From Candidatus Parcubacteria bacterium (GTDB lineage: Bacteria; Patescibacteriota; Minisyncoccia; UBA6257; 2-01-FULL-56-20): DNA of 46,236 nucleotides. The translations under genes and the position numbers were made by a program. The notes under the pieces were generated by a model, which ran no database searches, was not told the DNA's origin, and saw nothing but the letters and a program-made list of their open reading frames with translations. Below are positions 3,149 through 46,236 of the stretch, in pieces; within the stretch, counting starts at the first letter, position 1, and the number at the start of each line of letters is the position of its first letter. The stretch spans positions 1 to 46,236 of the forward strand of contig QZIV01000011.1 of assembly GCA_003599135.1 (NCBI GenBank). The letters run 5' to 3'.

Positions 3149-3214
3149 CCCTATTTGTAAATACTGTTTAGTAAAAATAATTCCCACTTTTTTCATTTTT
3201 CTTGCTTTTTCCTA

Positions 3215-3243
3215 TTGACAGATATACTAGCTCGTGATATAAT
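3215..3243 (+). promoter_or_regulatory. Consensus sigma70 promoter of the ibrAB cassette
   Basis: TTGACA (3215-3220), 17 bp, TATAAT (3238-3243), with extended -10 TG and T-rich upstream tract. Confidence 0.9.
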
Positions 3244-3249
3244 ATACTC

Positions 3250-3744
3250 ATGAGAACAGAGAACATAAAACTAGGTGAAATGGAGGAAAAGGAAATGGAA
3301 AGCAAGGATGCGATCAAGGGTTTAAGCCTGAATGAGATTTTAGCAACCACTAAAGAATTGAGCAATTATTTCCATCAAGCCCATATGAAGGTTGCAGCCC
3401 CGGCCAGCGGGTGGGCAAAGAATATGGAGCAATATTCCTTGCACATGAAGTTTCAGGTTGGCGGCTGGTTCGCAAAGTCCGCAGAGGAACAGGGCGAATA
3501 TTCCAAAGGTTTGTGGAGTACTATAAACCAAGGTTTTGGCATAATCGAAGTTAATATATGGGCAAAATGGGGCGGCAATTATTACGATGAAACCCCGATC
3601 GAGGGAACCATTGCTGAAATTCTTATCGTTGACCGCAGAACGCAATGGGATGACGGCAGCTACACGCCCCGAAGCTTTGAGGAAGCAAAAGCGCAAATTC
3701 AGCAACTTCTCGATAATCCAAAATCGGCGCCTCTTCTCTCATGA
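3250..3744 (+). CDS. Hypothetical protein, first gene of the ibrAB cassette
   Basis: ATG 3250 at the predicted transcription start (leaderless); alternative start 3295 after GGAGG; ATGA-coupled to the next gene. Confidence 0.65.
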   Translation: MRTENIKLGEMEEKEMESKDAIKGLSLNEILATTKELSNYFHQAHMKVAAPASGWAKNMEQYSLHMKFQVGGWFAKSAEEQGEYSKGLWSTINQGFGIIEVNIWAKWGGNYYDETPIEGTIAEILIVDRRTQWDDGSYTPRSFEEAKAQIQQLLDNPKSAPLLS

Positions 3745-4145
3745 AATATCACCTTAAATTTGAGGCCATTGGGGACAACATCTCTCAAATGATGCGCCTT
3801 TACCGATGGATAACAGACCAGGCTCTTGGTAAAGGCGCTGGCGATGTGGTGGTTGGGCATATTAGCAGCGGATGGGTTGCTGAGATTACAGGCAAGGACA
3901 AAAAATATAAATTTCGCCGTCACTTTTTGCGGGGGTTCAAGGATTATTCCAAAACAAATTCCGCGGGAAGTCGGGGCGTTTTTATTTCATTTTTTCTAGA
4001 TGAAGACAAACTCTATGAGGCTTGTTACCGGGTTACATGGGGAAGCGCGAGACGATATTTCTGCATCATCAAGAATGGGTGTATCATTGAGTTATCTGAA
4101 AAAGAGGCAAGGGAATGGCTAAAACAAAAAGGCCTTTGGGAATAA
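3741..4145 (+). CDS. Hypothetical protein upstream of ibrA
   Basis: 134 aa ORF overlapping both neighbours; GWVAEITG...DYSKTNSAGSRGV segment. Confidence 0.7.
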   Translation: MKYHLKFEAIGDNISQMMRLYRWITDQALGKGAGDVVVGHISSGWVAEITGKDKKYKFRRHFLRGFKDYSKTNSAGSRGVFISFFLDEDKLYEACYRVTWGSARRYFCIIKNGCIIELSEKEAREWLKQKGLWE

Positions 4146-5317
4146 ATGTGCTTGAGGCCGCGCAACAGCGCGTCGCCTGGGCATTCGACACCTTCCAAAA
4201 ACTCTATGTCTCTTTCAGCGGCGGAAAAGATTCGACCGTTATGCTCCACCTAGTTGCCGATGAGGCGCGCCGGCGCAGCCGCAAATTCGGGCTGCTCTTC
4301 ATCGATCTTGAAGGACAATATCAATACACGATCAAGCACGTACGCGCCATGTACGACACGTACGCCGACATTATCGAGCCGTACTGGGTTTCCCTTCCCA
4401 TCCACCTGCGCAACGGCGTCAGCCAGTTCCAGCCGCATTGGGTCTGCTGGGACCCGGACAAGCGCACCGACTGGATACGCGAGCCGGACCCGCTCTCAAT
4501 CACAGACCATGGCCATTTCCCGTTCTTTCATTATGCGATGGAGTTCGAGGAATTTACGCCCAAATTCGGGCGATGGTACGCCGGCGGGAAAACATGCGGA
4601 TGCTTCGTCGGGATTCGGGCGGATGAATCACTCAATCGATACCGCACAATCAAGCGCCGAAAAAGCATGATGGAAAATAAGCCGTTTACCACATGGTTCG
4701 GCGAGGGCCTCTTTAACGTCTATCCGATCTATGACTGGAGAACGCGCGATATCTGGATCTATCACGCGCGCACCGGCAAACTGTACAACCATCTCTACGA
4801 TATTATGCACAAGGCCGGCCTCAGTATCCACCAAATGCGGATCTGCCAGCCGTACGGCGACGATCAGCGCAAAGGGCTTTGGCTGTTTCACCTGATCGAG
4901 CCGGATACGTGGGCGCGAGTTGTTGCGCGCGTCAACGGCGCCAACCAAGGCGCACTCTACGCGCAGGACAGCGGGAACATCCTGGGTAATATCAAAATTT
5001 CGAAGCCCGAAGGGCACACATGGGAATCATTTGCAAGATTGCTACTTGAAAGCATGCCAGCAAAGACGCGCGAACATTATGAGGATAAAGTCGCTGTCTT
5101 CCTTCATTGGTATTCCGAGCGCGGATATTTTCACGGAATCATCCCGGATGAAGGACCCCTCACAAAAGATGCGCCGAGTTGGAAACGCATCTGCAAGGCG
5201 CTTCTGCGGAATGATTATTGGTGTAAAGGTCTTTCATTTTCTCAGCACAAATCCGAAGCTTACGAAAAATACCGTAAAATCATGAAACGGAGGCGAAGCG
5301 AATGGGGATTGATCTGA
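4115..5317 (+). CDS. ibrA: PAPS-reductase-like PP-loop protein with DUF3440 (IbrA/YbdN family)
   Basis: YVSFSGGKDS PP-loop, GIRADESLNR, YPIYDW, QMRICQPYGDDQR, PSWKRICKALLRNDYWC; paired with a ParB-like gene. Confidence 0.88.
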   Translation: MAKTKRPLGINVLEAAQQRVAWAFDTFQKLYVSFSGGKDSTVMLHLVADEARRRSRKFGLLFIDLEGQYQYTIKHVRAMYDTYADIIEPYWVSLPIHLRNGVSQFQPHWVCWDPDKRTDWIREPDPLSITDHGHFPFFHYAMEFEEFTPKFGRWYAGGKTCGCFVGIRADESLNRYRTIKRRKSMMENKPFTTWFGEGLFNVYPIYDWRTRDIWIYHARTGKLYNHLYDIMHKAGLSIHQMRICQPYGDDQRKGLWLFHLIEPDTWARVVARVNGANQGALYAQDSGNILGNIKISKPEGHTWESFARLLLESMPAKTREHYEDKVAVFLHWYSERGYFHGIIPDEGPLTKDAPSWKRICKALLRNDYWCKGLSFSQHKSEAYEKYRKIMKRRRSEWGLI

Positions 5318-5943
5318 TTGGCAATACCATCATCGAGCGGGCGCGTGAGTTGTTCTCAGAGCTTGAAAATCTGGACGCAGATGTGAAAATTGAAGTCATC
5401 AACGAAATAAAGGGTGCGCTTCATGAGCATAGCCCCTTCGCCGGCGAGCCCGTCGATTGCGTTCTCTGGATTCCCGCCGACCAGGTCGAGGCCAACGACT
5501 ATAACCCGAATGCAGTGGCGCCGCCGGAAATGCGCCTGCTCGAGCACTCCATTAAAAAAGATGGTTACACTCAGCCGATCGTTGCCTGGCCGGTCGAGGG
5601 TGGCTATGAGGTCGTCGACGGTTTTCATCGCAACCGGATCGGAAAGGAATGTAAAGCGGTCCGCGAGCGGGTAAGAGGACATCTGCCGCTGACTATTATC
5701 AATCCCGATCGCGAGGATCGGGGCGATCGAATCGCCGCTACCATCCGGCATAACCGCGCGCGTGGGCGCCACCAGGTCGCCGCTATGAGCGATGTGGTCC
5801 AGGAGCTTGCCCGCCGAAACTGGAGCGATAAGCGCATCGCGAAAGAACTCGGAATGGATCCAGACGAGGTCCTCCGCCTCAAACAGATCACCGGCCTCGC
5901 TGAAATGTTCTCCGATCAGGAGTTCTCAGAAGCATGGGATTAA
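5302..5943 (+). CDS. ibrB: ParB/Srx-like protein (IbrB/YbdM family)
   Basis: ANDYNPN, DGYTQPIV, VVDGFHR, ATIRHNRARG, C-terminal HTH IAKELGMDPDEVLRLKQITGL. Confidence 0.9.
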   Translation: MGIDLIGNTIIERARELFSELENLDADVKIEVINEIKGALHEHSPFAGEPVDCVLWIPADQVEANDYNPNAVAPPEMRLLEHSIKKDGYTQPIVAWPVEGGYEVVDGFHRNRIGKECKAVRERVRGHLPLTIINPDREDRGDRIAATIRHNRARGRHQVAAMSDVVQELARRNWSDKRIAKELGMDPDEVLRLKQITGLAEMFSDQEFSEAWD

Positions 5944-5960
5944 ATAGAGGAGGAAACCTT

Positions 5961-6128
5961 ATGACCGAAAACCTTACCAAACATCAGACCGTACCGCTCT
6001 CGCCTCGTCAATGGGAGGCGATCCGGCAGGCTGCCGCTGAGCGCAACCGGAAACCGACAGAGCTCATGCGGCTCATTATATTCGGGAAAGAGAAGCCGGT
6101 GAAGGAGGGGAAACATGGGAACGTATGA
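5961..6128 (+). CDS. Ribbon-helix-helix (CopG/Arc-like) DNA-binding protein
   Basis: GAGGAGG RBS; QTVPLSPRQWEAIRQAAAERNRKPTELMRLII matches the strand-helix-helix pattern. Confidence 0.65.
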   Translation: MTENLTKHQTVPLSPRQWEAIRQAAAERNRKPTELMRLIIFGKEKPVKEGKHGNV

Positions 6129-6294
6129 CACCATTGGCGGAACACCGCGCCATAACCCAATGTTTGACTGCGATCCGCCATGCGATATTTGTGGGAAAGA
6201 TCCTTATCTGTGCACGTGCCAGGAATGCCCTATCTGTGGCGAGCAAGGCAATCCTTGTTGCTATGTTGAGCACGGGCTTAAACGCGACAACTAA
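6115..6294 (+). CDS. Cys-rich 59-aa microprotein (not in ORF track)
   Basis: AAGGAGGGG RBS; MGTYDTIGGTPRHNPMFDCDPPCDICGKDPYLCTCQECPICGEQGNPCCYVEHGLKRDN; stop abuts the terminator. Confidence 0.75.
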   Translation: MGTYDTIGGTPRHNPMFDCDPPCDICGKDPYLCTCQECPICGEQGNPCCYVEHGLKRDN

Positions 6295-6333
6295 AGCTAA
6301 AAGCCCCTGCCGGGCGGCAGGGGCTTTTAGCTT
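6294..6333. terminator. Bidirectional intrinsic terminator
   Basis: Perfect 18-bp stem AAGCTAAAAGCCCCTGCC / GGCAGGGGCTTTTAGCTT with 4-nt loop. Confidence 0.88.
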
Positions 6334-6394
6334 CTCGATATCGGGGCCGCATAACCGGACTCAAAAATATTTTTGTATGCACGTTATTTTCCTC

Positions 6395-6423
6395 TTGACA
6401 GAATTACATATCTATGCTATGAT
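6395..6423 (+). promoter_or_regulatory. Rightward sigma70 early promoter
   Basis: TTGACA (6395-6400), 17 bp, TATGAT (6418-6423), extended -10 TG; shares TTTTCCTnTTGACAGA context with the 3215 promoter. Confidence 0.85.
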
Positions 6424-6435
6424 CTTGCACATGAG

Positions 6436-6453
6436 GAACATTCTACGCGCCAA
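6436..6453 (+). repeat. 18-bp direct repeat, copy 1 (GAACATTCTACGCGCCAA)
   Basis: 17/18 identical to 6781-6798. Confidence 0.8.
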
Positions 6454-6625
6454 TCGCACAGTATCAATCCAATTAAATAACCACTATATTATTCTACCCG
6501 AGCGGTCTCTATAGCATCCACGCTGATTCTAAGGGCCGCTCAAATTTTGAGCGTAAACGTCGTACTGGCACACTATCGGGGAGTTTACGCAATGAAACCT
6601 AGAAACAAGATAAACTTATCCCGCC

Positions 6626-6650
6626 TAAGTCATTGCTATAAAATGACTTA
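6626..6650. promoter_or_regulatory. Inverted repeat abutting the dif-like site
   Basis: TAAGTCATT-7 nt-AATGACTTA, perfect 9-bp arms. Confidence 0.6.
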
Positions 6651-6651
6651 C

Positions 6652-6679
6652 GTCTTTGATAATATATCTTATGTCTACT
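6652..6679 (+). other. dif: dif-like XerC/XerD recombination site (candidate attP or dimer-resolution site)
   Basis: GTCTTTGATAA-TATATC-TTATGTCTACT: 11-6-11 layout with ATAA...TTATGT core; right arm 9/11 to B. subtilis TTATGTAAACT and 8/11 to E. coli TTATGTTAAAT (reference sequences from memory). Confidence 0.72.
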
Positions 6680-6694
6680 TCAGCGGGGCCGTAA

Positions 6695-6837
6695 AACTAA
6701 AATTCGAGGCCGAGACGGACTCCTAGAGACCCTGTCTCGGCCCCATTTATCGGCAGGAAAGGCCAAAGGACGCCAGTGCAGAACATTCTAAGCGCCAACT
6801 TAGGAAGGAACCGCGCCTGTTCGCCCCTTAGCCTTAA
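6695..6837 (-). ncRNA. Candidate antisense small RNA of about 140 nt
   Basis: Downstream of a leftward consensus promoter; no obvious ORF; ends in GGCCGAGAC...GTCTCGGCC hairpin followed by a U-rich tract on the minus strand. Confidence 0.5.
6781..6798 (+). repeat. 18-bp direct repeat, copy 2 (GAACATTCTAAGCGCCAA)
   Basis: 17/18 identical to 6436-6453; lies inside the predicted antisense RNA. Confidence 0.8.
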
Positions 6838-6842
6838 CCTAT

Positions 6843-6871
6843 AGTATAACATCCCGATGTTATTTTGTCAA
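6843..6871 (-). promoter_or_regulatory. Leftward sigma70 promoter with palindromic operator
   Basis: Minus strand TTGACA (6871-6866), 17 bp, TATACT (6848-6843); ATAACATC-CC-GATGTTAT palindrome (6846-6863) covers the spacer. Confidence 0.8.
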
Positions 6872-6899
6872 GCGATGTCAAGGGAAAGGTGGCGAGCAA

Positions 6900-7256
6900 A
6901 TGGCATTTGAACCAATCGACAGGGACGCCGATCTAACCTTCTTCAAGAGCGGCCAGGTTTACATTACCCAAAGCGCCGCAGAGCGATATTTCAAGGGCAT
7001 TTCGCTTGTACGGGTTGAATACGATCCCGAGGCTCTCAGCGTGTCCTTCTCCCCCGCTACTACGGATGGACCGGCGATGCGGCAGGTCTGGAATACGACC
7101 CGAGGGACAATGACCATTTCCATAAGAATGCTATTCCGGCGATTCCATTTCCATCTCAGGAAAACCGTCTATGCAAATTTCTACCGGAAGGATGATCGAA
7201 TTGTTTTTAATCTGCCGGCAGATGCGATTATCAGGGATGAAGATTCAGCCCGTTGA
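6900..7256 (+). CDS. Hypothetical protein, first gene of the early operon
   Basis: 118 aa ORF with AAAGGTGG RBS, overlapping the next gene. Confidence 0.65.
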   Translation: MAFEPIDRDADLTFFKSGQVYITQSAAERYFKGISLVRVEYDPEALSVSFSPATTDGPAMRQVWNTTRGTMTISIRMLFRRFHFHLRKTVYANFYRKDDRIVFNLPADAIIRDEDSAR

Positions 7257-7458
7257 CGATCTAACCGGCCATAGGTTCGGGCGCTTGCATGTGGTGACGA
7301 TGTTGCGCGATTCGAGCCGGACCATTGAGCGCCTTTATCTCTGCGAATGTTCCTGCGGGAATGCGGTTGAAATATCCCATTACGATCTATGGAACGGGAA
7401 GAAGAGATCATGCGGCTGTTTGAAGGGGCGGGGAGATAGGCTACAGCGGGCAAAATAA
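7237..7458 (+). CDS. Stand-alone Zn-binding domain of the type found N-terminal in AP2/HNH homing endonucleases
   Basis: DLTGHRFGRLHV...CECSCG...NGKKRSCGCL pattern; no nuclease domain follows. Confidence 0.65.
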   Translation: MKIQPVDDLTGHRFGRLHVVTMLRDSSRTIERLYLCECSCGNAVEISHYDLWNGKKRSCGCLKGRGDRLQRAK

Positions 7459-7496: not shown

Positions 7497-7685
7497 ATGG
7501 GAAATTCTCAATGCGAGTTCTGCGGGCGCTCCTACACGAAAAAACGGCAATGGCAAAAATTCTGTTCCCGGACCTGCCGAATCGAGTTTCATCAATCCGG
7601 CGGCGAAGAGGTTTTGAGATTGAGGCGCGAGAACAAGGCGTTGCGGGAACGGATGAAAACTATTACGGAGATTGCCTCTCAATGA
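7497..7685 (+). CDS. Small Zn-finger plus coiled-coil protein
   Basis: CEFCG...QKFCSRTCR followed by LRLRRENKALRER. Confidence 0.65.
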   Translation: MGNSQCEFCGRSYTKKRQWQKFCSRTCRIEFHQSGGEEVLRLRRENKALRERMKTITEIASQ

Positions 7686-7850: not shown

Positions 7851-8006
7851 ATGAAAATCATAACCGTATTCCTTGAAGCCTCATGCCCCGTTTGTGGCGG
7901 TTATAACACCTGTGCCTATGGCGGATCATCAAAGCGGCTCTGTCTAACGTGCGACGTAGTATTTGAGATTGAGTGCAAAGAGGTTATCAGTGAACCATTA
8001 TCGTGA
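7851..8006 (+). CDS. 51-aa Zn-ribbon protein (not in ORF track)
   Basis: GAGGAGG RBS; MKIITVFLEASCPVCGGYNTCAYGGSSKRLCLTCDVVFEIECKEVISEPLS. Confidence 0.7.
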   Translation: MKIITVFLEASCPVCGGYNTCAYGGSSKRLCLTCDVVFEIECKEVISEPLS

Positions 8007-10236
8007 CTTCCTTGAAGGCAAAAAGACCTTGTGGGGCGCATACGGCAAGCCCGTTTCGCGTGGCGATATTCATGAGAAGCTATTTCCATTTCAGCGGGAT
8101 TTAACTTATTGGGCGGCTCGCAAGGGCAAAAGTGCGATATTCGCTGACTGCGGACTCGGAAAAACATTCATGCAGTTGGAATGGGCCCGATTGCTAGATG
8201 AAAGAACGCTGATAATTGCGCCGCTGTCGGTTGCACGCCAAACAGTACGGGAGGCGGAAAAGCTCGGGCTGACCGTGAAATATATCCGGGATTGTTCGTC
8301 TCTAGAAAAACTGAATATCACAAATTATGAAATGCTCGATCACATTAACCCCGCTTTGTTCGGGGCCGTTGTGCTCGATGAATCAAGTATCCTAAAATCA
8401 ATCGCCGGAAAGACCCGCGAAAAACTGATAGAGATGTTTCAACAAACCAATTTCAAGTTATGTTGCACGGCAACGCCCGCCCCGAATGACATTGCAGAGA
8501 TTGCGAACCATGCAGAGTTTTTGTCAGTTGCTACCCGCAATGAAATGCTCTCAACATTCTTTGTGCATGATGCCGAAGGGTGGAGATTGAAGCGACATGC
8601 GGTTGAGCCATTCTACCGCTGGCTTGCCTCGTGGAGCATGAATATAACAAAGCCCTCGGATTTTGGGTATGAGGATAACGGATTTATTTTGCCGCCATTA
8701 ACGGTTGCCCCCGTTTTCGTCCGTTCAAACTACAAGCCGCAGGATGAATTGTTCGCAACCGGGCTATCCGGCATTGCTGACCGCTGCAAGGTCCGGGGGG
8801 CATCAATCAGCGACCGGATAGAACAAACAAAGAAACTTCTTCATGCGCGATCAGGCCAGTGGGTTATTTGGTGCAACCTGAACAAAGAGGCCGATGTGCT
8901 AATTAAAGAGCTCGCTAATTGCCGCGAAATCAAGGGCGCGGATTCGCTGGAAATGAAGCTGCGGAATATCGAAGATTTTCAAGACGGTAAATATCGCATT
9001 CTTATAACAAAACCATCCATTTGCGGCTTTGGGCTGAACCTTCAGAACTGCGAAAACCAACTATTTTTTGGGCTTTCCGATTCATGGGAAAGTTATTACC
9101 AGTGTATCAGGCGATCGTGGCGATTTGGCCAGACAAAGCCAGTAAGCGTTCATATTGTTTTAACTGATATTGAGCGGGTGATATATGAGAATGTAATGGA
9201 AAAGGCGCAGGCGGCGGAAACGCTGACCAAGGGGCTTATTGAGAACATAGCAATATTTGAGAAAGAGGAAATCGGGGGCATCAATCTAGGCGATTCATGG
9301 AGGTATGAAATGCGCGACGTGAAGGGCGAAAATTATTATATCATGCTTGGTGATTCATGCGAGCGCATGAAAGAACTACCCGCTGAATCAATCCACCTTT
9401 CGGTATTCTCTCCCCCATTTGCAAGCCTCTATACCTACAGCAGCACAGAGCGCGATCTTGGGAACTGCAAGGATGAAGCGGAGTTTTTAAAACACTTCGA
9501 TTTTATCATTGAAGAGCTTTACCGGGTAACTATCCCTGGCCGAATTTGCGCCGTTCATGTTTTTGACATCCCGGCGATGCTGATAAGAGATAACTTTATC
9601 GGCCTGAAAGACTTCTCCGGGGATGTTATCCGCCAATTTATCAATCATGGCTGGATTTACGACGCGCGAATCCCAATAGACAAGAATCAGCAGGCGCAAT
9701 CCATCCGGACGCATTCAAAGGCGCTGACCATGACGCAACTTGAAAAAGATCGGTCATGGCTCCGGCCCGCACTTCCCGACTATATTCTTAAATTCCGCAA
9801 GCCCGGCGAAAATCCCGCTCCCGTCGTAAATGGTGGCGTGACGCGGGATCAATGGATTGAGTATGCCGCCCCTACATGGCCAGACCCGATAGCCGATCGA
9901 TGCGCCGAAATGGGCGCATTCCCAACGTGGTACGGTATCCGGGAAACCGATACCCTGCAGGGCTGGCGAACAAAGGCCGGGCACAGGAATACGGGCGGAA
10001 AAGACGAAAAGCACATTTGCCCGCTGCAACTTGAAACGATATCCCGCATTATTCGCCTCTGGTCAAACGAACATGAGCGCATATTTACCCCGTTCATGGG
10101 GATCGGGTCCGAGGTCTATCAGGCTATCAGCTTGAATCGCTATGGCATTGGAATAGAACTAAAGCCCGAGTATTTCGAGCTTGCGGTTGAATACCTGAGT
10201 GAATACGAAAGAGGTATGGAGTTATTTGCATCATAA
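7990..10236 (+). CDS. SNF2-like helicase fused to an N4-cytosine/N6-adenine DNA methyltransferase
   Basis: LFPFQ, FADCGLGKT (Walker A), VVLDESS, TATPAPN, GLNLQ, QCIRRSWRFGQ; C-terminal SVFSPPF (motif IV), HICPLQ, FTPFMGIGSE (motif I). Likely GTG start 7990. Confidence 0.9.
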   Translation: MNHYRDFLEGKKTLWGAYGKPVSRGDIHEKLFPFQRDLTYWAARKGKSAIFADCGLGKTFMQLEWARLLDERTLIIAPLSVARQTVREAEKLGLTVKYIRDCSSLEKLNITNYEMLDHINPALFGAVVLDESSILKSIAGKTREKLIEMFQQTNFKLCCTATPAPNDIAEIANHAEFLSVATRNEMLSTFFVHDAEGWRLKRHAVEPFYRWLASWSMNITKPSDFGYEDNGFILPPLTVAPVFVRSNYKPQDELFATGLSGIADRCKVRGASISDRIEQTKKLLHARSGQWVIWCNLNKEADVLIKELANCREIKGADSLEMKLRNIEDFQDGKYRILITKPSICGFGLNLQNCENQLFFGLSDSWESYYQCIRRSWRFGQTKPVSVHIVLTDIERVIYENVMEKAQAAETLTKGLIENIAIFEKEEIGGINLGDSWRYEMRDVKGENYYIMLGDSCERMKELPAESIHLSVFSPPFASLYTYSSTERDLGNCKDEAEFLKHFDFIIEELYRVTIPGRICAVHVFDIPAMLIRDNFIGLKDFSGDVIRQFINHGWIYDARIPIDKNQQAQSIRTHSKALTMTQLEKDRSWLRPALPDYILKFRKPGENPAPVVNGGVTRDQWIEYAAPTWPDPIADRCAEMGAFPTWYGIRETDTLQGWRTKAGHRNTGGKDEKHICPLQLETISRIIRLWSNEHERIFTPFMGIGSEVYQAISLNRYGIGIELKPEYFELAVEYLSEYERGMELFAS

Positions 10237-10825: not shown

Positions 10826-11033
10826 CTCTTACATTCCCGAAACAGAGCACCCATACATCGAGCAGAACCGCACAGGGACCGAACTGCTACGGCAGCAATT
10901 GGCGCTTGTCCAGCGGCAGAACGACCTATTGCAAAAGACGTGTGATGTCTATTCGCTGATCGTTCAGGGCATGGAGCGCGAGATCAAGACGTTGCGCCAA
11001 AAACACCACGGCGATATGTGGGTGGAAAACTGA
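10812..11033 (+). CDS. Hypothetical coiled-coil protein
   Basis: Overlapping chain of + strand ORFs. Confidence 0.6.
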   Translation: MDILDSYIPETEHPYIEQNRTGTELLRQQLALVQRQNDLLQKTCDVYSLIVQGMEREIKTLRQKHHGDMWVEN

Positions 11034-11034
11034 T

Positions 11035-11313
11035 ATGCCGACCATGACTACATCAAAACTGGAAGTCATCGTTGACGGAAGGATTCTATTCTCAGATACC
11101 TTTCCAGTTGCAATAATGGGCAAGCCTGAAGTCGATAAGGAATTGGCAGATATGCCGCGCCTAATGATTTTCTGCGCTGCCAATCTTCTCGTGGGCATTC
11201 TAAAAATCGGGGATTTCGCTTGGGCGGCAGAGCGATTTCAGGCAATGAGCCTTGAGGCAATGGGAAGGTGCATCGCTAAAATGCGGGGGCCAACGGATGC
11301 CGACCATGACTGA
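11035..11313 (+). CDS. Hypothetical protein
   Basis: Starts 1 nt after the previous stop. Confidence 0.55.
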   Translation: MPTMTTSKLEVIVDGRILFSDTFPVAIMGKPEVDKELADMPRLMIFCAANLLVGILKIGDFAWAAERFQAMSLEAMGRCIAKMRGPTDADHD

Positions 11314-11551
11314 AAGCAAGCTCGCGGAGATGGGGGCAGCGGCTCACGCTTGTCGGGGCTACCTGATTTTCAGGGCGACAGCCGCCCAATGGGACGACCG
11401 CTACCCGTTCATTTGCTGGCTTCGTGACCGGATAAAGCTGCCGGATGACTACGCTTACGCCATCGACGCCAACTTCTTTGGCGACGACATCAGGCGCTGG
11501 CATTGGGAAGCGTATCTCGATGACGTGTACGGGAGGGAGGAAAGTCGATGA
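11306..11551 (+). CDS. Hypothetical protein
   Basis: Overlapping chain; ATGA-coupled to 11548; start uncertain. Confidence 0.55.
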   Translation: MTESKLAEMGAAAHACRGYLIFRATAAQWDDRYPFICWLRDRIKLPDDYAYAIDANFFGDDIRRWHWEAYLDDVYGREESR

Positions 11552-11889
11552 ATTTCAAAATGCCGAAACCCACACCAGGTTTCCGAATCACTGGCAAAAA
11601 GGGTTTTCATATGACCTTTGAAAATGGTTATACCGTGTCCATCCAGTTCGGGCCAGGAGATTATTGCGATAACTATGACATGGAAATCGGAGAGCAGGAT
11701 GAGGCCGCCGGAGCCAATGGCTCATCGAATGCCGAGTACGCCGTATGGGGGCAAGGGGGAGAGATGATTCAGTACGGCGACTGGGGGGATACGGTCAGCA
11801 ACCGCTCAACGCCAGCGCAGGTTCTTGAATTATTGAATTGGGCGGCGAATCAACCAGCAATGGGGAATCCTGATGCCCTCGCTCGATGA
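11548..11889 (+). CDS. Hypothetical phage protein
   Basis: GGAGG RBS; GFHMTFENGYTVSIQFGPGDYC segment. Confidence 0.7.
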   Translation: MNFKMPKPTPGFRITGKKGFHMTFENGYTVSIQFGPGDYCDNYDMEIGEQDEAAGANGSSNAEYAVWGQGGEMIQYGDWGDTVSNRSTPAQVLELLNWAANQPAMGNPDALAR

Positions 11890-12273
11890 CGCGGTAACTG
11901 CGTTCGCCCATGCGGATGCCGCATACAAGACAGCCAAACGCGAACCTGCTCCCCCACGTGCTCGGAGCACCGCGCAAGGGTAACGATCAACTTCAAGGTG
12001 GTTAAAAAAGGAGAGGGTGAAGAATGACAACAATACCATGGCAATTAGACTCGCCGGAAAAGACCGCGACCGAAAGCACAAAGTCTAAATCCGAAATTAA
12101 GGTGGGAAAAAGATAAATGATTGCTTGGTTTATCGGAGGGCAAGACCATGAATCGCAGTACCCGCCATTGCGGGCTATGAGACAGCACACGATGGAGTAT
12201 TTCTTTCACGCGGCCTCGTGGATGAGCGGGGCTGCGTGAGGGAAATAGGGTAGAGAAAAGGAGCGGGAAAACA

Positions 12274-13137
12274 ATGGAAGGTGAACTTATGGAAAACGGA
12301 AAGAGCATTGCACCGCAGAACATGCTCGAGACTGCTTTGAGCGCGGACTTTGACGCAACTAAGGCAATTGCTCAGGCGGAAAAGCGGGTAGCGTTCTTGA
12401 AGCAGATCGCCGTTGTCAGCCTGAAAATGACAACAGAGGAGGACTGGACAAACGAGGGCGGCAAGCCCTACCTGCAATCATCGGGGGCCGAAAAACTGAA
12501 ACCGTTGTGGGGCATCTACGTGAAACCGGGGACGGTACGCTTTGAACGAGAAGATGATGAAGGACATCCGGCATTCACGTGCACCGGGGTCATGGGTTCA
12601 ACAATCACCCATGAAGAATCTGAATTTGTCGGCGGCAGATCGGCAAAGGATACGTTCTTTTCCCATCAAGCGTCTTGTGACATTCTCGACGTGAAAAAGG
12701 CGGCATATTCGAACCTTGAAGTGAACGGGATCACCCGCCTCCTCGGATTGCGAAACCTCACATGGGACCAACTCAAAGCCGCCAATCTCAATATCGAGAA
12801 GATCGGCAAGGTGGAGCGCGACACTTCCGGGATGGAGAAAGAGGAGATCGACAAGGCGCGGCTAAAGCATTTCGGAGAGTGCCTCGACGCCCTTTGCGAG
12901 ACGCGGGAAAAGGCGATCGAAAAGTTGTATGAGATGACAACCTTCACCGGCCGTGACGGGAAGACGATCACCGGCATCAAGTCTCTGAAGGCAATCAAGA
13001 GCAACAAGCAACTCAACAAGCTCACCCATGACATTCACGAGGCCATGAAAAAGGCGGGCGTGACGATCCCGGAAATGCCGAAGGCTCCGGCGCCTGAAAA
13101 TAAGAATGGAGGCGGCAATGATCCCGGGAATAGTTGA
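12274..13137 (+). CDS. Putative single-strand annealing recombinase
   Basis: GKPYLQSSGAEKL and DVKKAAYSNL segments; directly upstream of an exonuclease, the usual annealase-exonuclease pairing. Confidence 0.6.
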   Translation: MEGELMENGKSIAPQNMLETALSADFDATKAIAQAEKRVAFLKQIAVVSLKMTTEEDWTNEGGKPYLQSSGAEKLKPLWGIYVKPGTVRFEREDDEGHPAFTCTGVMGSTITHEESEFVGGRSAKDTFFSHQASCDILDVKKAAYSNLEVNGITRLLGLRNLTWDQLKAANLNIEKIGKVERDTSGMEKEEIDKARLKHFGECLDALCETREKAIEKLYEMTTFTGRDGKTITGIKSLKAIKSNKQLNKLTHDIHEAMKKAGVTIPEMPKAPAPENKNGGGNDPGNS

Positions 13138-22973: not shown

Positions 22974-23327
22974 ATGCCACAGCGTCAGCCGCCAAAAAAG
23001 CCGCTACGGATTTGTACCCACCCAGGATGCAATAATCTGACAACGGAAAGATATTGCCAAAAATGCGCCCCGAAACATATACAGAACTGGATAAAAAAGC
23101 GAGAATTCCCCCGAATATCCGGCCGAAAATTACAAAAAGCGCGGAAAAGGCTATTCAAGGAGCGACCACATTGCGAAAATTGCCTAAAACAAGGGAAATA
23201 CAGCCTCGCAACTGAGCGAGATCACATAATTCCGCTATCTCAGGGCGGGCCGGATGCAGAGGAAAACATTCAGGCGCTTTGCAAGGAATGCCATGATAGA
23301 AAGTCCAAAAATGAACAAAAAGGCTGA
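22974..23327 (+). CDS. HNH endonuclease (terminase-associated, HK97 gp74-like)
   Basis: CTHPGC N-terminus; CENC...DHIIPLSQGG...NIQALCKECH; upstream of the terminase genes. Confidence 0.88.
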   Translation: MPQRQPPKKPLRICTHPGCNNLTTERYCQKCAPKHIQNWIKKREFPRISGRKLQKARKRLFKERPHCENCLKQGKYSLATERDHIIPLSQGGPDAEENIQALCKECHDRKSKNEQKG

Positions 23328-24097: not shown

Positions 24098-24589
24098 ATG
24101 CCAGGCAGAAAACCGATTCCAACAAACATGAAGCTACTCAAAGGCAATCCCGGCAAGCGCGCTCTGAATGAGAACGAGCCGAAACCGGAAATTGAGATCC
24201 CGGACCCGCCGCGCTTTCTAACAGGGTATGCGCTGGAAGAGTGGCATGAGATCACGCCGATTCTCTATAGGCTCGGGCTCGTCTCAAAGCCAGATCGGGC
24301 CGCCCTTGCCGCATATTGTCAGGCGTTTCAGCGATGGGCGGAAGCGGAAGAGCAGCTTACCGGCCTTGACGGCCGCCAGAATTTGCTTACTCAGGACACG
24401 TCCGGCAATATCCGCAAATCGCCGCTCGTGAATATCGCTCATGAGGCGATGGATCAAATGCGCCGATTTTTGGTCGAATTCGGCATGACCCCGAGCTCCC
24501 GGGCAAAGGCTGTTGCCCGAAAGCCGAATGAAAACAAAAGCCCGTGGGATAAATTCAAGACGGCTGACACGAGAAAGAAAAAGAAATAA
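24098..24589 (+). CDS. terS: Terminase small subunit, P27 family
   Basis: MPGRKPIPTNMKLLKGNPGKR, ALAAYCQA, EFGMTPSSR. Confidence 0.93.
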   Translation: MPGRKPIPTNMKLLKGNPGKRALNENEPKPEIEIPDPPRFLTGYALEEWHEITPILYRLGLVSKPDRAALAAYCQAFQRWAEAEEQLTGLDGRQNLLTQDTSGNIRKSPLVNIAHEAMDQMRRFLVEFGMTPSSRAKAVARKPNENKSPWDKFKTADTRKKKK

Positions 24590-26253
24590 TGTCACTTTCC
24601 TATGCCGCTCGCGCTAACAAATACGCCCGCGAAGTCCTATCCGGCAAAATCCCGGCCTGCATTTATGTCCGGCAGGCTTGCCAGCGCCACCTTGACGATC
24701 TCGCACAGTCAAAAGACAAATCCTATCCGTACTATTTCGACACTGGCACCGCAGACCGTATTTGCTCATTCGCTGAAAACATGGTTCACGTCAAGGGCAA
24801 ATGGGCGCTTGAATCTATCCGGCTTGAAGCATGGCAGATTTTCCTATTCGCCGTTGCGTTCGGTTGGCTCAGACATACCGACAACATGCGCCGATTCCGG
24901 GAAATCTATTGGGAAATTCCGCGCAAGAACGGTAAATCGCTTATGGGGGCAATTATCGGGCTTTACATGGCATTTGCCGATACCGAGGCGGCTGCAGAAG
25001 TATTTTCCGGCGCTACTTCCGAAAAACAGGCGTGGAAAGTGTTCTGGCAGGCCCGCCAAATGTGCCTGAAGTCAGAGGAATTCCGGGAACATTTCGGCAT
25101 CTATGTTGGCGCGAAAAACCTTTGTTGCCTTGATGACGGCTCGAAATTTGAGCCGATCATCGGCGACCCCGGCGACGGCGATTCCCCGCATTGCGCGATT
25201 ATAGACGAGTACCACGAGCATAAGAAATCGAATCTTTACGACACGATGAAAACCGGCATGGGTGCCCGTACTCAACCTATGCGCGTGGTTATCACAACCG
25301 CCGGAATGGACACGTCCACGCCCTGTTATGCAAAGCATGACGATTCAATCAAGATCCTCGCGGGCGTCCTGCAGGATGACGAAACATTCCCCTGCATTTT
25401 CACAATTGACCCTGACGATGACTGGACCTTACTCGAAAACTGGAAAAAGGCTAACCCAAATTATGGCGTATCCGTTTTTGAGGACTTCCTGGAAGCCCGC
25501 CGGCAAGAGGCGATGGTCAAAACCGGCGAGCAGAATGAACTCAAATGCAAGCACCTGAATGTATGGAGCAGCGCGGGCGTCGCATGGATCAACATTCTGC
25601 AATGGCGAAAAAACATAATTCCCATGACACTCGAAGAACTCAAAGGCCAGCCCTGTATTGCCGCCCTCGATCTCGCGTCAAAAATTGACCTCGTTGCGCT
25701 TGTTTTCATGTTCAAATTCCCCGAATATTACTACTTTTTCGGGCGATACTATCTCCCGGAAAATACCGTCGATCTCCCGGCTAACAGGCATTACCAAAAA
25801 TGGCGCGATGAAGGCCATTTGATTGTCACGCCCGGCGCTCGCACGGATTTTCACTACGTCAAAGACGATCTTCTAGAGCACAATAAGACTTTCCCGATAA
25901 AAGAACTGGCGTATGATCCCCACGAGGCCGCGATGCTCATTCAGGAAATCGAAGAGGAGGCGTCTTTCCCCTGTATCGAAGTCATGCAATCGGCGGCGCA
26001 AATCTCCGAGCCGATGAAAGAACTGGAGGCCCTTTACATGGCCGGGAACCTTCATCATGACGGAAACCCGATTCTCAATTGGACCGCGTCTAATGTTGTG
26101 CTCAAATCTACCCGGACAAAGCTATTTTATCCGGCTAAAGAGCGCCCGGAAAACAAGATCGACCCGATTGTCGCCGCGATCATGGCGCTAAAACGGGCGA
26201 TGATTGCCGCTCCAACATCCGTCTACGAAGAAAGGGGGATTTTATTTGTATGA
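24589..26253 (+). CDS. terL: Terminase large subunit
   Basis: EIPRKNGKS Walker A, IIDEYHEH Walker B, ITTAG, WKKANPN, ALDLASKID, KIDPIVA. Confidence 0.96.
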   Translation: MSLSYAARANKYAREVLSGKIPACIYVRQACQRHLDDLAQSKDKSYPYYFDTGTADRICSFAENMVHVKGKWALESIRLEAWQIFLFAVAFGWLRHTDNMRRFREIYWEIPRKNGKSLMGAIIGLYMAFADTEAAAEVFSGATSEKQAWKVFWQARQMCLKSEEFREHFGIYVGAKNLCCLDDGSKFEPIIGDPGDGDSPHCAIIDEYHEHKKSNLYDTMKTGMGARTQPMRVVITTAGMDTSTPCYAKHDDSIKILAGVLQDDETFPCIFTIDPDDDWTLLENWKKANPNYGVSVFEDFLEARRQEAMVKTGEQNELKCKHLNVWSSAGVAWINILQWRKNIIPMTLEELKGQPCIAALDLASKIDLVALVFMFKFPEYYYFFGRYYLPENTVDLPANRHYQKWRDEGHLIVTPGARTDFHYVKDDLLEHNKTFPIKELAYDPHEAAMLIQEIEEEASFPCIEVMQSAAQISEPMKELEALYMAGNLHHDGNPILNWTASNVVLKSTRTKLFYPAKERPENKIDPIVAAIMALKRAMIAAPTSVYEERGILFV

Positions 26254-27252: not shown

Positions 27253-28974
27253 ATGAGCCTATTATTGCGCCTTTTACAGCCCGATTCCTTCGAGGCCCGC
27301 GCTTCCGCAGACGATGATTTTTGGTATACCCACGCGCCTTCGGGTCCGACAAAGACCGGCCTCGATATTGACGAAACGAATGTCATTCAAATCGCTACGG
27401 TTTGGGCGTGCGTGCGAGTGATTGCCGAAACAATAGCCTCTTTGCCCCGTTTCGTATATGAACGGCTCGAAAAAGGCAAGAAAAAAGCCATAAATCACCC
27501 GCTTTACAACCTGATCCACCTGCAACCGAACCCCGAATCTAGCGGGATGCAGTTCCATGAGACAATGCTCCATCATTTGCTATTGTGGGGAAACTTTTAC
27601 GCCGAAAAGCAAATCAATCAGCGAAATGAACTCATTGCGCTCTGGCCGTGGAATCCGGCGCAAACAAGCGTGGAAAGAGATAGAGAAACCAGTCAATTGA
27701 TGTATACTCTACAACTTGGCAACGGGAAAGACCCCCGAAAACTGCCCCGCGAGCGTATGTTCCATATCGCCGGACTCTCATTTAACGGCGTAACCGGGCT
27801 TTCGCCAATCGCCAATGAGCGGGAAACATTCGGCCTCGCAATGGCTACCCAGGAATTCGGGTCGCGATTTTTCGGCAACTTCGCAAAGCCCGGCGGGGTC
27901 ATGGAACACCCCGGGCAAATAACCGATGAAGTCTATAAGCGCCTGCAGGCGTCATGGCAAGAAGGACACGCAGGACTACATAACGCTCATAAGCTGGCAA
28001 TTCTCGAAGAGGGCATGACGTTCAAGCCTATCACGATGCCGCTTGAGGACGCTCAATTTCTCGAAACGCGGAAATTTCAGCAAAATCAAATTGCCGCGAT
28101 CTTCCGGGTCCCGCCTCATATGATCGGCGATCTCGAACGCGCAACATGGGGAAATATCGAATTTCAGAGCCTTGATTTTGTTGTGCATTGTATTCGCCCG
28201 TGGCTTGTGCGGATTGAGCAGGCGTGGTTACTGCAATTATTCAAGCCCGAAGAGCGCCGCCGCTTTTTTGCAGAGCATGTTGTCGATGGACTCTTGCGGG
28301 GCGATTTCAAAAGCCGGATGGAAGGCTACGCGATTGGCAAAAACAACGGGTTTATGTCTTCAAATGACATTCGCGAGCTCGAAAATATGAACCCGATCCC
28401 GGAGGAGCAGGGCGGCAATACGTATCTCATACCCGCCAACATGCTGCCGGCGGAGCGGGCGCTCAATCCAGAGCCGGAGCCGCAGGAGACGATGCCAGAG
28501 CCGGAAGAGCAGCCCCAGCGCCGCGAGCGCATGAGAAGCGCGTTTACGCGATGGTTTGCCGATGCAACCGCAAGGATTGTCCGGCGCGAATCAGCCGCGA
28601 TCGGCAACCAGGCGAAAAAATTCATGGGGATTTATGCGCTTGAGGACTTCGAGGCATGGCTCGATAGCTTCTATGGCGATCTGCCGGCATTCATCGGCCT
28701 GCAGTTAGAGCCGGTCGTTTCATCCTACTGCGATACGGCGGATCTTAATGGGCAGGCAGGGACGTTTTGCGCGGCATTCCTGGAGGATTTCTCGGGGCGC
28801 CACATTTCGGAGAGCAAGAACCTTATCCTTGCGACGGCAAAACAGGCGGATCGGAGCGTTAGATTCGCTGCAATAGAAAATATGGTTAACGAATGGACTG
28901 AGGGCCGGGCCGAACACATAGCAGAGCGCGAGATTGATTATATGGCGGCTCTCATACAGGAAAATATGATCTAA
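27253..28974 (+). CDS. Portal protein, HK97 family, with C-terminal extension
   Basis: VWACVRVIAETIASLP, PNP, LLLWGNFY, GLSPI, AQFLETRK, IAAIFRVPPHMIG, NDIRELENMNP. Confidence 0.96.
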   Translation: MSLLLRLLQPDSFEARASADDDFWYTHAPSGPTKTGLDIDETNVIQIATVWACVRVIAETIASLPRFVYERLEKGKKKAINHPLYNLIHLQPNPESSGMQFHETMLHHLLLWGNFYAEKQINQRNELIALWPWNPAQTSVERDRETSQLMYTLQLGNGKDPRKLPRERMFHIAGLSFNGVTGLSPIANERETFGLAMATQEFGSRFFGNFAKPGGVMEHPGQITDEVYKRLQASWQEGHAGLHNAHKLAILEEGMTFKPITMPLEDAQFLETRKFQQNQIAAIFRVPPHMIGDLERATWGNIEFQSLDFVVHCIRPWLVRIEQAWLLQLFKPEERRRFFAEHVVDGLLRGDFKSRMEGYAIGKNNGFMSSNDIRELENMNPIPEEQGGNTYLIPANMLPAERALNPEPEPQETMPEPEEQPQRRERMRSAFTRWFADATARIVRRESAAIGNQAKKFMGIYALEDFEAWLDSFYGDLPAFIGLQLEPVVSSYCDTADLNGQAGTFCAAFLEDFSGRHISESKNLILATAKQADRSVRFAAIENMVNEWTEGRAEHIAEREIDYMAALIQENMI

Positions 28975-44027: not shown

Positions 44028-46236
44028 AAATTTCCGCATGGGCTTTGGGCTACAGCCCTATCACCGCCGTGGCCGTTGGCGAAGGTGACGTGGTCATATG
44101 GGACTCTTCGACTGCCTATCAGGTGACCACGACCACCACGCAAGGCAGTCAGCTTGTGGCCGGCGTGTGCGATGAGGCGGCCTCACTCGGGCAGCCCGCG
44201 CCAATCACTTCCAGCGGCCCATGCGTCAAAGTGGCGGTTACGGGCAGCGTCTCGATCGGCGATTACCTGATTACGAGTACGACGGCGGGCAAGGCGGTTG
44301 CGTCGGCCACGCTCGTTAACGGAGTATTTGGCCGGGCGATCACTGAGGATGGTACGCCGTCAGCCGGCTTCTGCTATGCGGACGTTGATGTCGGATTACA
44401 GGACGGTGCGGGTACTCCCAGCGCCGGAACAATTACAGAATCGATGCTCGATATCACGAACGCGGCTGTAGACGAATATACGCTCACCTACGAAACAACC
44501 GACGATGATCTTGAATGGCACGCGCCTTCCGAATGGATAAGCGTGGATGATCCTCTTGTGTGGCGCGGCGGGTTTCTCCTCGATATTCTGGCCGATGGGA
44601 TCAATGACCTCCATATCGATTGGGGGACCGACGCGGACCAGGTTAGCCAGGATGATGTTGTCGACGGCACGTCTTACGAGCGCGTGGCGGCAAATCAGCT
44701 TTCCAGCGGCATCTATATTGACGCCACGACCGCGGTTAAAGGTATTGCCTCGTTTGTGAGCTCATTTTTCTCCGTCTCTTCCGGTGCGGTATCCATTGCG
44801 AATGATGCAATCACCGAAGCACTCCTGAAGGCCGTCAATGCCGCTTCGGATGAATACTGCTTTACCTATGAGAGCACGACGGGTGACTTTGAATGGGAAG
44901 CGCCTTCCGACCTGTTCACCGCAGGCGCGTCACTCGATTGGGCTGGCGGGTTCGTTCTCGAAGTTGCGGCGGACGGCGTGAACGACCTGCATGTTGATTG
45001 GGGGACCGGAACGAATCAGGTATCAGCGGCGGACGTGCCTTTTGCTGACGGCGACAGCAACTATACGGCTACCACGGTTGAGGCTGCATTTGCCGAACTC
45101 GATGACACAAACCCGTCAGGCGTGAATGCCGCAGACGCAAAGGTTGACTGGACTCAATTGGGTTCTGTCCCCGCCGGATTCGCTGACGGTACGGATGATA
45201 CAGGGGGCGGCGGCGATATTACAGACGTGTTTGATTGTGCCACCGGCGATTGCGCATCTATCGCCATGACGGACGGTGATCTTCTCAATGCCTCTGCCGT
45301 CAATGGTTCGAGCACGACTGAAGGCATTATCATTCCGCAGTCTACCGACTGTTCGGCGGCAACGGCTGAAGGTCAGCTTTGCTGGGATACCGACAACACC
45401 ACGCTCTATATCGGCAACGACGGCGGTACGTCTCAGATAGGCGCGGCTGGCGGCGCTGGCGATATCTCAGACGTTTACAACTGTGCATCGGGTGACTGTG
45501 CGGCTATAGCCATGGCCGACGGGGACCTGCTGAATGGTTCGGCTGTCAACTGCTCAGGTACGGGCGAGGGCATCATATTGCCGCAGGCGGCTGATTGCGC
45601 CGCTGCTACCGCAGAGGGTCAGATATGCTGGGACACTGACGATCGGCTGTATGTGGGAACAGGCGCGGCTACGGTGGGGATGCTGAAAGCGACGGATACG
45701 GGCGGGGCAATCGACTTCGGCGGCTCTACCAGTTTAGAGATTCCCAATGGCACAGATCCACAGCCTAATGCTACCGGCGAAATAGCACTTGATACCGACC
45801 TTGCGGATTGGTCAATCGACCGGGCGCTTATCGTCTATGCCCTTGACGCCACAAATCAAATGTACGCTATCGCCGTTCATGAGGATGAATTTGCAAGCCT
45901 GGCCGATGACTTCATAGTCAAATACGATGCCGCAACGGATGAATTTAAACTGGAGGAAGATACGGGCGGAAGTGGCGGATTTGTAGATCGAGGCGATCCA
46001 GCGGCCAATGATTACACACAAGCCACATTGACGAGTGACAGCACATATCATGACCTTGATTTGAGCGCAATCGTGCCAGCAGGTGCAACCGGGGTGCTTC
46101 TCAAAATCATGATCAAAGATGCTACCGTAGGGGCGGCTTTCACAGTTAGAAAGAATGGCAACACCAACGCGTACGCAACCTCATCAGTTCGCACACAGGT
46201 TGCAAATGTTTATGTTGAAGGCTGCGTAACAATCCC
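43934..46236 (+). CDS. Approximately 795-aa fibre protein with signal peptide, cement-like N-domain and internal repeats (continues to 184; missing from ORF track)
   Basis: GAGGAGG RBS, GTG 43928 or ATG 43934; my manual translation is open to the window end and through the junction to TAA 184; acidic, Gly/Thr/Ala-rich; two pairs of internal repeats. Confidence 0.85.
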   Translation, partial: MNPWSKIFVFFCLGLFVLVSLTLDLRRWTLDQISAWALGYSPITAVAVGEGDVVIWDSSTAYQVTTTTTQGSQLVAGVCDEAASLGQPAPITSSGPCVKVAVTGSVSIGDYLITSTTAGKAVASATLVNGVFGRAITEDGTPSAGFCYADVDVGLQDGAGTPSAGTITESMLDITNAAVDEYTLTYETTDDDLEWHAPSEWISVDDPLVWRGGFLLDILADGINDLHIDWGTDADQVSQDDVVDGTSYERVAANQLSSGIYIDATTAVKGIASFVSSFFSVSSGAVSIANDAITEALLKAVNAASDEYCFTYESTTGDFEWEAPSDLFTAGASLDWAGGFVLEVAADGVNDLHVDWGTGTNQVSAADVPFADGDSNYTATTVEAAFAELDDTNPSGVNAADAKVDWTQLGSVPAGFADGTDDTGGGGDITDVFDCATGDCASIAMTDGDLLNASAVNGSSTTEGIIIPQSTDCSAATAEGQLCWDTDNTTLYIGNDGGTSQIGAAGGAGDISDVYNCASGDCAAIAMADGDLLNGSAVNCSGTGEGIILPQAADCAAATAEGQICWDTDDRLYVGTGAATVGMLKATDTGGAIDFGGSTSLEIPNGTDPQPNATGEIALDTDLADWSIDRALIVYALDATNQMYAIAVHEDEFASLADDFIVKYDAATDEFKLEEDTGGSGGFVDRGDPAANDYTQATLTSDSTYHDLDLSAIVPAGATGVLLKIMIKDATVGAAFTVRKNGNTNAYATSSVRTQVANVYVEGCVTI
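46138..46236. repeat. Terminal overlap identical to 1-99
   Basis: Exact 99-bp duplication of the window start. Confidence 0.97.

Follow-up and report, generated by a model that had tools for sequence, protein, structure and literature searches.

In IS10, the loop of a bulged antisense stem (RNA-OUT) pairs with the extreme 5' end of its target (RNA-IN), and in prgQ/prgX of pCF10 convergent promoters a few hundred base pairs apart bring together transcriptional interference and an antisense RNA. P4 CI relies on short leader boxes complementary to a small structured RNA; c4 and P4 CI are both processed from the same-sense transcript as their targets, and both belong to temperate or plasmid elements. 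In published accounts, the par system (Fst/RNA I-RNA II) of the Enterococcus plasmid pAD1 is described as having convergent promoters, a terminator between them and repeats that are read in opposite directions (PMC7472228), lambda OOP and P22 sar as short terminated RNAs from their own promoter facing a major phage promoter (PMC12197685), and P1/P7 c4 as a small structured RNA to which short leader boxes are complementary (PMC12197685). Here, we compare with these systems the predicted leader of the main early operon (6424-6899) on a phage contig of 46,236 nucleotides (nt), QZIV01000011.1, assigned to a Candidatus Parcubacteria bacterium; the window that we analysed is this entire contig (C3), from a bin of 24 contigs and 0.70 Mb.

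The leader begins after one of two facing promoters and contains the other, carries a repeated 18-nt box and is predicted to encode, on its minus strand, a short structured RNA. These features are real and non-random, and what they add up to is a well-formed hypothesis, not a discovery. To our knowledge, phage gene control in ultra-small Patescibacteria is essentially unstudied, and our literature search on Patescibacteria phages turned up, in the sources as far as they were available, only metagenomic and host-range work.

Facing promoters and a repeated box in the early leader

Promoters were scored against a sigma-70-type consensus over its 12 hexamer positions. The earlier note, made from the letters of the window, had placed convergent promoters at 6395-6423 and 6871-6843, and both were confirmed as outliers relative to shuffled sequence. 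The rightward promoter, P_R (6395-6423, plus strand), reads TTGACA-17-TATGAT and the leftward one, P_L (6871-6843, minus strand), reads TTGACA-17-TATACT; in each, 11 of the 12 positions match, the spacer is 17 nt and the -10 is extended by TG, and the predicted starts are at about 6430-6431 and about 6835-6838, respectively. Counting both strands, only four sites in the whole element reach at least 11/12 (+3215, +6395, -6871 and -1083), compared with a mean of 0.33 in 100 dinucleotide shuffles, none of which (0/100) held four or more, and all four fall outside the open reading frames (ORFs) taken as genes. The site at +3215, a full 12/12, stands ahead of an operon of PAPS-reductase and ParB-like genes, and the site at -1083 ahead of the gene for a secreted GDSL-like protein. 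The other 23 contigs of the bin contain 31 such sites versus about 2 in resampled sequence, and it is therefore plausible that the host uses this type of promoter.

Upstream of P_R, a perfect 19-bp inverted repeat (6294-6333, 100% complementary), preceded by a run of A and followed by a run of T, has the form of a bidirectional terminator; on this prediction, it closes the upstream PAPS-reductase/ParB-like operon and insulates P_R. Downstream of P_R, no convincing gene is found for about 470 nt. ORF 6900 (6900-7256, plus strand) follows; it is the first gene of the early operon, encodes 118 amino acids (aa) and has AGGTGG 7 nt before its ATG. From 6424 to 40000 there is no rightward promoter-like site above 9/12; thus, the early genes should depend on P_R and the leader. 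P_R, ahead of the early and replication genes, is most likely the main early promoter, with the gap as its leader. P_R and the 3215 promoter have TTTTCCTnTTGACAGA upstream and CATGAG at the predicted start in common (3185-3260 versus 6365-6440), and the two look like one promoter class. A leaderless P_R mRNA was considered and rejected: all that spoke for it was the ATG at the predicted start, and, because the 3215 promoter is followed by a canonical GGAGG and ATG at 3296, CATGAG more likely belongs to the promoter module. At the other end of the leader, two tandem 10-mers, TGTCAAGCGA and TGTCAAGGGA (6866-6885, plus strand), overlap the -35 of P_L, place a pair of TTGACA hexamers on the minus strand at a distance of 10 bp and may be a protein site. 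A weak hairpin at 6846-6863 followed by UUUU could be an attenuator, which is only a guess.

The box is present twice, as a direct repeat. Box 1 (GAACATTCTACGCGCCAA, 6436-6453, plus strand) occupies +6 to +23 of the P_R transcript; box 2 (GAACATTCTAAGCGCCAA, 6781-6798, plus strand) is 17/18 identical to it, and its complement, UUGGCGCUUAGAAUGUUC, corresponds to nt 40-57 of the predicted antisense RNA described below. With up to three mismatches allowed, these two are the sole matches in the window, and two or more matches were found in 0/100 shuffles. Their flanks do not align (the upstream flank score was reached in 21/500 shuffles and the downstream score in 159/500), so that the repeat is not what is left of a larger duplication of recent date. 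In the minus-strand reading, box 1 contains a -10-like TAGAAT with TTGATA 16 nt upstream (6467-6440, 10/12); this could be a weak leftward promoter that diverges from P_R, at a strength no better than chance.

Both boxes contain a 10-nt core, ATTCTAMSSG, of which there are four copies (6440, 6491, 6526 and 6785), all in the plus orientation and nowhere else in the element. This pattern was derived from the same four copies; the plain hexamer ATTCTA clusters likewise, with 4 of the 15 copies of the element inside this 350-nt stretch. The two copies outside the boxes are ATTCTACCCG (6491-6500, plus strand) and ATTCTAAGGGCC (6526-6537, plus strand), the latter 11/12 identical to box 2; against the antisense RNA, one of these extra copies is 11/12 complementary and the other is weaker. 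The earlier note had missed the four core copies, as well as the possibility that the first gene encodes a DNA-binding protein.

A predicted antisense RNA and its pairing with box 1

The predicted transcript from P_L, on the minus strand, is about 140 nt long (about 6837-6695) and has a 5' stem-loop, a spacer, a hairpin that would serve as terminator and a tail rich in U. Folding of the 148-nt sequence of the minus strand gives -65 kcal/mol (z -4.06; 0/200 shuffles as good), and the plus strand over this span gives z -2.12. The 5' stem-loop (6835-6759, minus strand), which is long and bulged and has 30 pairs, 5 of them G-U, folds at -37.2 kcal/mol (z -3.63; 0/200 shuffles as good), compared with -21.1 kcal/mol for the plus strand of the same span (z -0.29; 80/200 shuffles as good). 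The five G-U pairs become A-C mismatches on the other strand, a pattern expected if the minus-strand transcript were under selection. The upper part of this stem-loop holds the complement of the box, with UUGGCG at the tip. The GC-rich hairpin that follows (6744-6706, minus strand) has the tail GAAUUUUAGUUUU at 6705-6693, which is U-rich only in the minus orientation; the sequel on the plus strand, CCAUUUAUC, makes a poor tail.

No ORF with a ribosome-binding site was found inside this RNA. Two candidates were rejected: ORF 6697-6852 (minus strand) starts upstream of the predicted P_L start, and a 33-codon ORF beginning with TTG is without a ribosome-binding site. The claim of the earlier note that the leftward transcript has no obvious ORF and ends after about 140 nt in a hairpin and U-tract is thus supported, and the fold is strand-specific. 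The stretch 6837-6695 is best read as the template of a structured, terminated RNA of about 140 nt from the minus strand, and three in-silico lines (the promoter, the fold and the strand specificity of the 5' stem-loop) suggest that such an antisense RNA probably exists.

The earlier note had given this RNA two 18-nt targets. The 17/18 match to box 1 at 6436-6453 stood, whereas the cis target proved trivial, because every antisense RNA complements its own template; box 1 is the sole additional site. Box 1 is mostly unpaired in the predicted 5' end of the P_R transcript. The hybrid at the box is worth -25.2 to -25.7 kcal/mol, and opening costs 11.1 kcal/mol in the antisense RNA and 4.1-4.5 kcal/mol at box 1, so that the net pairing of the antisense box with box 1 comes to about -10 kcal/mol. 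An 18-mer scan of the whole element on both strands (184 distinct sites), with target accessibility included, ranked the cis site first at -26.2 kcal/mol and box 1 second at -21.6 kcal/mol, followed by sites at -16.7, -15.3 and -14.9 kcal/mol. Apart from the cis site, no target of the antisense box in the element outranks box 1 when accessibility is counted.

We propose a model, the likeliest of those considered although we give it a somewhat less than even chance as a whole, whereby the antisense RNA controls the main early operon through its leader. P_R would transcribe rightward through the untranslated leader (6424-6899) into ORF 6900, the helicase-methylase gene and the replication genes, and P_L, inside the leader, would give rise to the non-coding RNA, which would run from about 6836 to about 6695 (about 140 nt) and stop at the intrinsic terminator. 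This RNA would lower or time early-gene expression by two routes, one of which is convergent transcription, with polymerase collision and occlusion over the shared 140 bp. The other would be base pairing with the P_R transcript over the RNA's own template region; in addition, the apical UUGGCG loop and the box may reach box 1, at the very start of that transcript, and pair there. Pairing could then lead to cleavage, decay or premature termination. The promoters, the repeat, the strand-specific fold and the ranking by energy are what the sequence shows; production of the RNA, its pairing with box 1 and the downstream effects are what we infer here.

A number of observations weigh against this model. 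The antisense RNA (about 6695-6837) falls short of the ribosome-binding site of ORF 6900 (6887-6893), and any effect on ORF 6900 would therefore be indirect. Most of the box is paired inside its own stem in the antisense RNA, which leaves an open loop of just 4-6 nt, and the single mismatch with box 1 sets a U opposite a C, without a wobble. The margin of box 1 over other targets is lost with a 26-nt probe and no accessibility term, with which a site at 12311 reaches -30.7 kcal/mol versus -30.2 kcal/mol for box 1. Co-folding gave an ensemble gain of -5.3 kcal/mol, compared with a mean of -5.0 kcal/mol for 100 resampled targets, 32 of which did as well or better, as did 79 of 151 natural windows; this test is biased against the pairing model, because pairing of an inner segment inside a closed outer stem is not representable in it. 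The terminator hairpin has inner bulges in its stem and an interrupted U run, and a simple terminator scan did not call it on either strand. Four direct core copies suit protein binding at least as well as they suit an RNA, and the two extra copies are not well explained by the RNA model.

The searches for relatives also weigh on this side, and all claims about the leader rest on one sequence. With the region 6290-6900, blastn found no match in phages or plasmids, and at the DNA level this region matched 0/60 related genomes. The leader compared with 34 ParB-anchored viral loci gave a best E of 0.44, and with 80 helicase-methylase-anchored loci a best E of 0.38, both at chance level. No Rfam family reached its gathering score anywhere in the window. 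This was the check that the earlier note had called for, and its outcome was negative; at E <= 10, all seven matches lay at 6250-6383 and none within 6395-6871, the sub-threshold terminator-like matches being confined to the inverted-repeat region at 6294-6333.

Further searches were run with the leader, the box and the core. With the leader, nhmmer found nothing in the ParB-anchored or helicase-methylase-anchored sets. The box pattern GAACATTCTAMGCGCCAA had no match in viral contigs and 11 matches in genome contigs from unrelated phyla, compared with about 35 that we estimate to occur by chance in 596 billion bases; blastn extended these matches to 18-23 nt, apart from a single one that reached 45 nt at 80% (L005), and they were dismissed as chance, none of the 11 loci matching other parts of the window. 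A triple-core pattern (three core copies with loose spacing) had four viral matches, all of them tandem arrays, and at least 110 metagenome matches, of which 88/110 had more than three copies on one strand and 0/110 were similar to the window or to the ORF 6900 family (blastn at E <= 0.01, and tblastn). In one 111-kb viral contig (L132), a long tandem array at about 11000-11983 has a unit with GGAACATTCTACCCG, which is near box 1, beside GTTCCGGAAC palindromes; this array was taken as chance as well, no other similarity being seen. The ORF 6900 family fared no differently: alignment A2 found no relative in metagenome, viral or genome contigs, alignment A1 matched 0/400 genomes at each of the order, class and phylum levels, and tblastn of two family members (P0001 and P0003) against phages gave no match.

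Protein operators and other explanations

The boxes may instead be DNA operators, with a protein that binds box 1, the two weaker cores and box 2 and thereby shuts off or autoregulates the early operon. The likeliest such protein would be the product of ORF 6900, with the ribbon-helix-helix (RHH)-like protein encoded at 5934-6128 as an alternative; the antisense RNA may coexist with this arrangement, the repeat being read as DNA. We regard operators as doubtful on balance and still as a serious rival, because the core occurs four times and the first gene possibly encodes a DNA-binding protein. P1 C1 repressor uses asymmetric 17-bp operators, and MraZ is encoded by the first gene of its own operon and binds direct repeats, spaced on the helical repeat, in its own promoter region. 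In the leader, the core copies share one orientation and occur nowhere else, ATTCTA is clustered, box 1 at +6 to +23 of P_R stands in a classic repressor position, and the tandem 10-mers lie over the -35 of P_L. The model of ORF 6900 (predicted local distance difference test, pLDDT, 85.4) has two beta-beta-alpha-beta-beta halves, suggestive of a two-halved barrel, and a pseudo-dimeric monomer of this kind would fit an asymmetric 18-bp site. In a structural search independent of Foldseek, its best match was MraZ (1n0e_A; Z 5.4, root-mean-square deviation 3.6 over 84 residues), followed by three plant B3 DNA-binding domains (Z 3.6-3.9), BfiI (Z 2.7) and SpoVT (Z 2.4). However, all of these are below a Z of 8, and matches below that value may reflect a mere common arrangement. 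Foldseek gave no match in the PDB to the model at E <= 0.001, the best meaningful one being a B3 domain with a probability of 0.72; 0/7 family members matched Pfam DNA-binding families (MraZ and SpoVT_AbrB included) at E <= 1; and hhalign of ORF 6900 against the bin's own MraZ gave a probability of 0.5%, which is not significant. The family itself is tiny: ORF 6900 found only itself among 5.8 billion clustered proteins and eight relatives (about 115 aa) among 1.84 billion representatives, the best of them 58% identical and attributed by name to a Candidatus Parcubacteria bin, and in BFVD its fold is present in many uncharacterised phage proteins. In addition, the core pattern was defined from the very copies that it counts, these copies are spaced 51, 35 and 259 bp apart, unlike the helical repeat of MraZ sites, and operators leave unexplained the position of box 2, at the tip of an RNA stem-loop that is strand-specific.

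That the leader has no regulatory role, with P_L unused or giving a functionless RNA and the repeat left over from a small duplication or gene conversion, seems improbable. Neither conservation nor expression evidence speaks against it, and the composition of the contig is unlike that of the bin (tetranucleotide correlation of 0.42-0.77 versus 0.87-0.98 among most of the other contigs), which leaves the host uncertain; but chance is unlikely for the promoters and the boxes singly and still less likely for their arrangement and for a fold specific to one strand, and the repeat's flanks show no alignment. The earlier note had favoured immunity or copy control by an RNA switch of the P4 CI or P1 c4 kind, which would keep a prophage or plasmid form silent. 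It was right that no CI-like repressor is recognisable, since no protein repressor was recognised on the contig and no HTH_3 match was found, and the short complementary boxes in the leader are reminiscent of c4, which works via short complementary sequences (PMC12197685). Nevertheless, we consider such a switch very unlikely. Domain searches of the contig found no match for a tyrosine integrase (Phage_integrase), a serine recombinase (Resolvase), HTH_3 or ParA (AAA_31), and the ParB-like gene belongs to a pair with the PAPS-reductase/DUF3440 gene; thus, there is no sign of a lysogenic or plasmid state, and the proposed role is unsupported. The analogy also fails in layout, in that the RNA would be read from the opposite strand, from a facing promoter of its own, and Rfam has no match to any family. 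CI and c4, by comparison, are cut from the same-sense transcript as their targets. We give even less credence to a stronger form of this idea, in which the 140-nt RNA would be the sole control of silent carriage versus lytic growth and of superinfection immunity, as a new family; its premise is a phage of ultra-small bacteria that is wholly devoid of protein repressors.

A par-like type I toxin-antitoxin system, in which the P_R transcript up to the hairpin would be a toxin mRNA and the P_L RNA its antitoxin, is the explanation that we find hardest to credit. Its appeal lies in an arrangement like that described for par (PMC7472228), in which the two promoters converge on a hairpin and each flank of the hairpin holds one repeat copy, the copies being read in opposite directions, and in two short ORFs. 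One of 27 codons (6431-6514, plus strand) opens at the predicted start of the P_R transcript, overlapping box 1, with no support for its translation; the other, of 44 codons (6592-6726, plus strand; 59 codons from TTG at 6547), is preceded at 8 nt by GGGGAG, which falls within a predicted hairpin, and ends inside the predicted terminator hairpin. Yet neither peptide is hydrophobic (grand average of hydropathy, GRAVY, -0.23 and -0.40; maximum 15-residue hydropathy 0.25 and 0.77), the 59-aa form has no relative besides itself in 5.8 billion proteins, the hairpin on the plus strand has a poor U tail, and transcription from P_R must read through, because no other strong promoter serves the early genes.

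The phage genome and comparison with known systems

The window ends in an exact 99-bp direct repeat (1-99 and 46138-46236), and the phage genome is therefore completely assembled, as a circle of about 46.1 kb. Its long ORFs are nearly all on the plus strand. They include a large terminase (24589-26253), for which nothing at least 50% identical was found in 50,697 phage records, a portal (27253-28974), a helicase-methylase fusion (7963-10236), an O-like replication initiator, a DnaB-like helicase, a primase domain, methyltransferases and a Cas4-like exonuclease. Short HNH-endonuclease-like ORFs lie at 7171-7458, 7497-7685 and 22974-23327, the first two directly after ORF 6900. The only clear minus-strand gene (998-148) has a secreted product, with an N-terminus that resembles a signal peptide and a weak match to GDSL lipases; the gene is preceded by an 11/12 promoter of its own (1083-1055) and has GGAGG as its ribosome-binding site. 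The segment 3215-6333 appears to be a self-contained, moron-like cassette, bounded by the 12/12 promoter with TG (3215-3243) and the bidirectional terminator. Between them are two small ORFs ahead of the PAPS-reductase/DUF3440 gene (4115-5317), the adjoining ParB-like gene (5302-5943), which together with it we take to be an IbrA/IbrB pair and not a partition system, a gene for a small NikA/RHH-like protein of 64 aa (5934-6128) and a Cys-rich ORF of 59 aa.

In tetranucleotide composition, the phage contig correlates with the other bin contigs at 0.42-0.77, whereas most of the others correlate among themselves at 0.87-0.98; C18 (64.5% GC), C22 (42% GC) and C21 are outliers along with it. The bin is probably mixed, and because the profile of the phage contig is unlike the rest of it, the host assignment is uncertain; the closest relative of the ORF 6900 protein is likewise named from a Candidatus Parcubacteria bin. 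This is thus a phage almost without relatives in public data that was binned with an ultra-small, Patescibacteria-sized genome. Since the region is small and self-contained and has consensus promoters, whether the repeat acts as RNA or through a protein is decidable in vitro or in a laboratory host.

Among the known systems, MraZ is the one that the operator explanation resembles: the first gene is modelled as a two-domain AbrB-like barrel, and direct repeats lie between promoter and start codon, but the match in fold reaches no more than Z 5.4, the sequences show no similarity and the spacing of the repeats is irregular. The antisense model has more than one counterpart. Like c4 and CI, the leader has short boxes complementary to a small structured RNA, and it differs from them in that this RNA comes from the opposite strand and its own promoter, has no Rfam match and is found with no lysogeny genes. 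OOP and sar share with it a facing promoter of their own and a short terminated non-coding product, which here is predicted in silico; they come from temperate phages and overlap a coding region or ribosome-binding site (cII, ant), whereas the present RNA overlaps only untranslated leader and has in addition a remote box. By analogy, the proposed contact between a loop and a 5' end recalls IS10, and the convergent promoters with proposed interference and antisense RNA recall prgQ/prgX; neither is related in sequence, and the downstream genes and the element differ.

The likeness to par extends further: convergent promoters, a hairpin between them, one copy of an 18-nt repeat on each side, the two being read in opposite directions, and a predicted short RNA complementary to the 5' end of a long one. 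Where par has a shared bidirectional terminator, the hairpin at 6706-6744 folds on both strands, with a U-rich tail on the minus strand only and neither orientation flagged by the scan. The differences are that there is no hydrophobic toxin ORF, that one long box takes the place of DRa and DRb, that the element is a phage and that transcription of the long RNA has to continue into an early operon of 17 kb. If the antisense RNA is real, it would be a regulator of a new sequence family, and a par-type layout would here control not a toxin but the main early operon of a phage.

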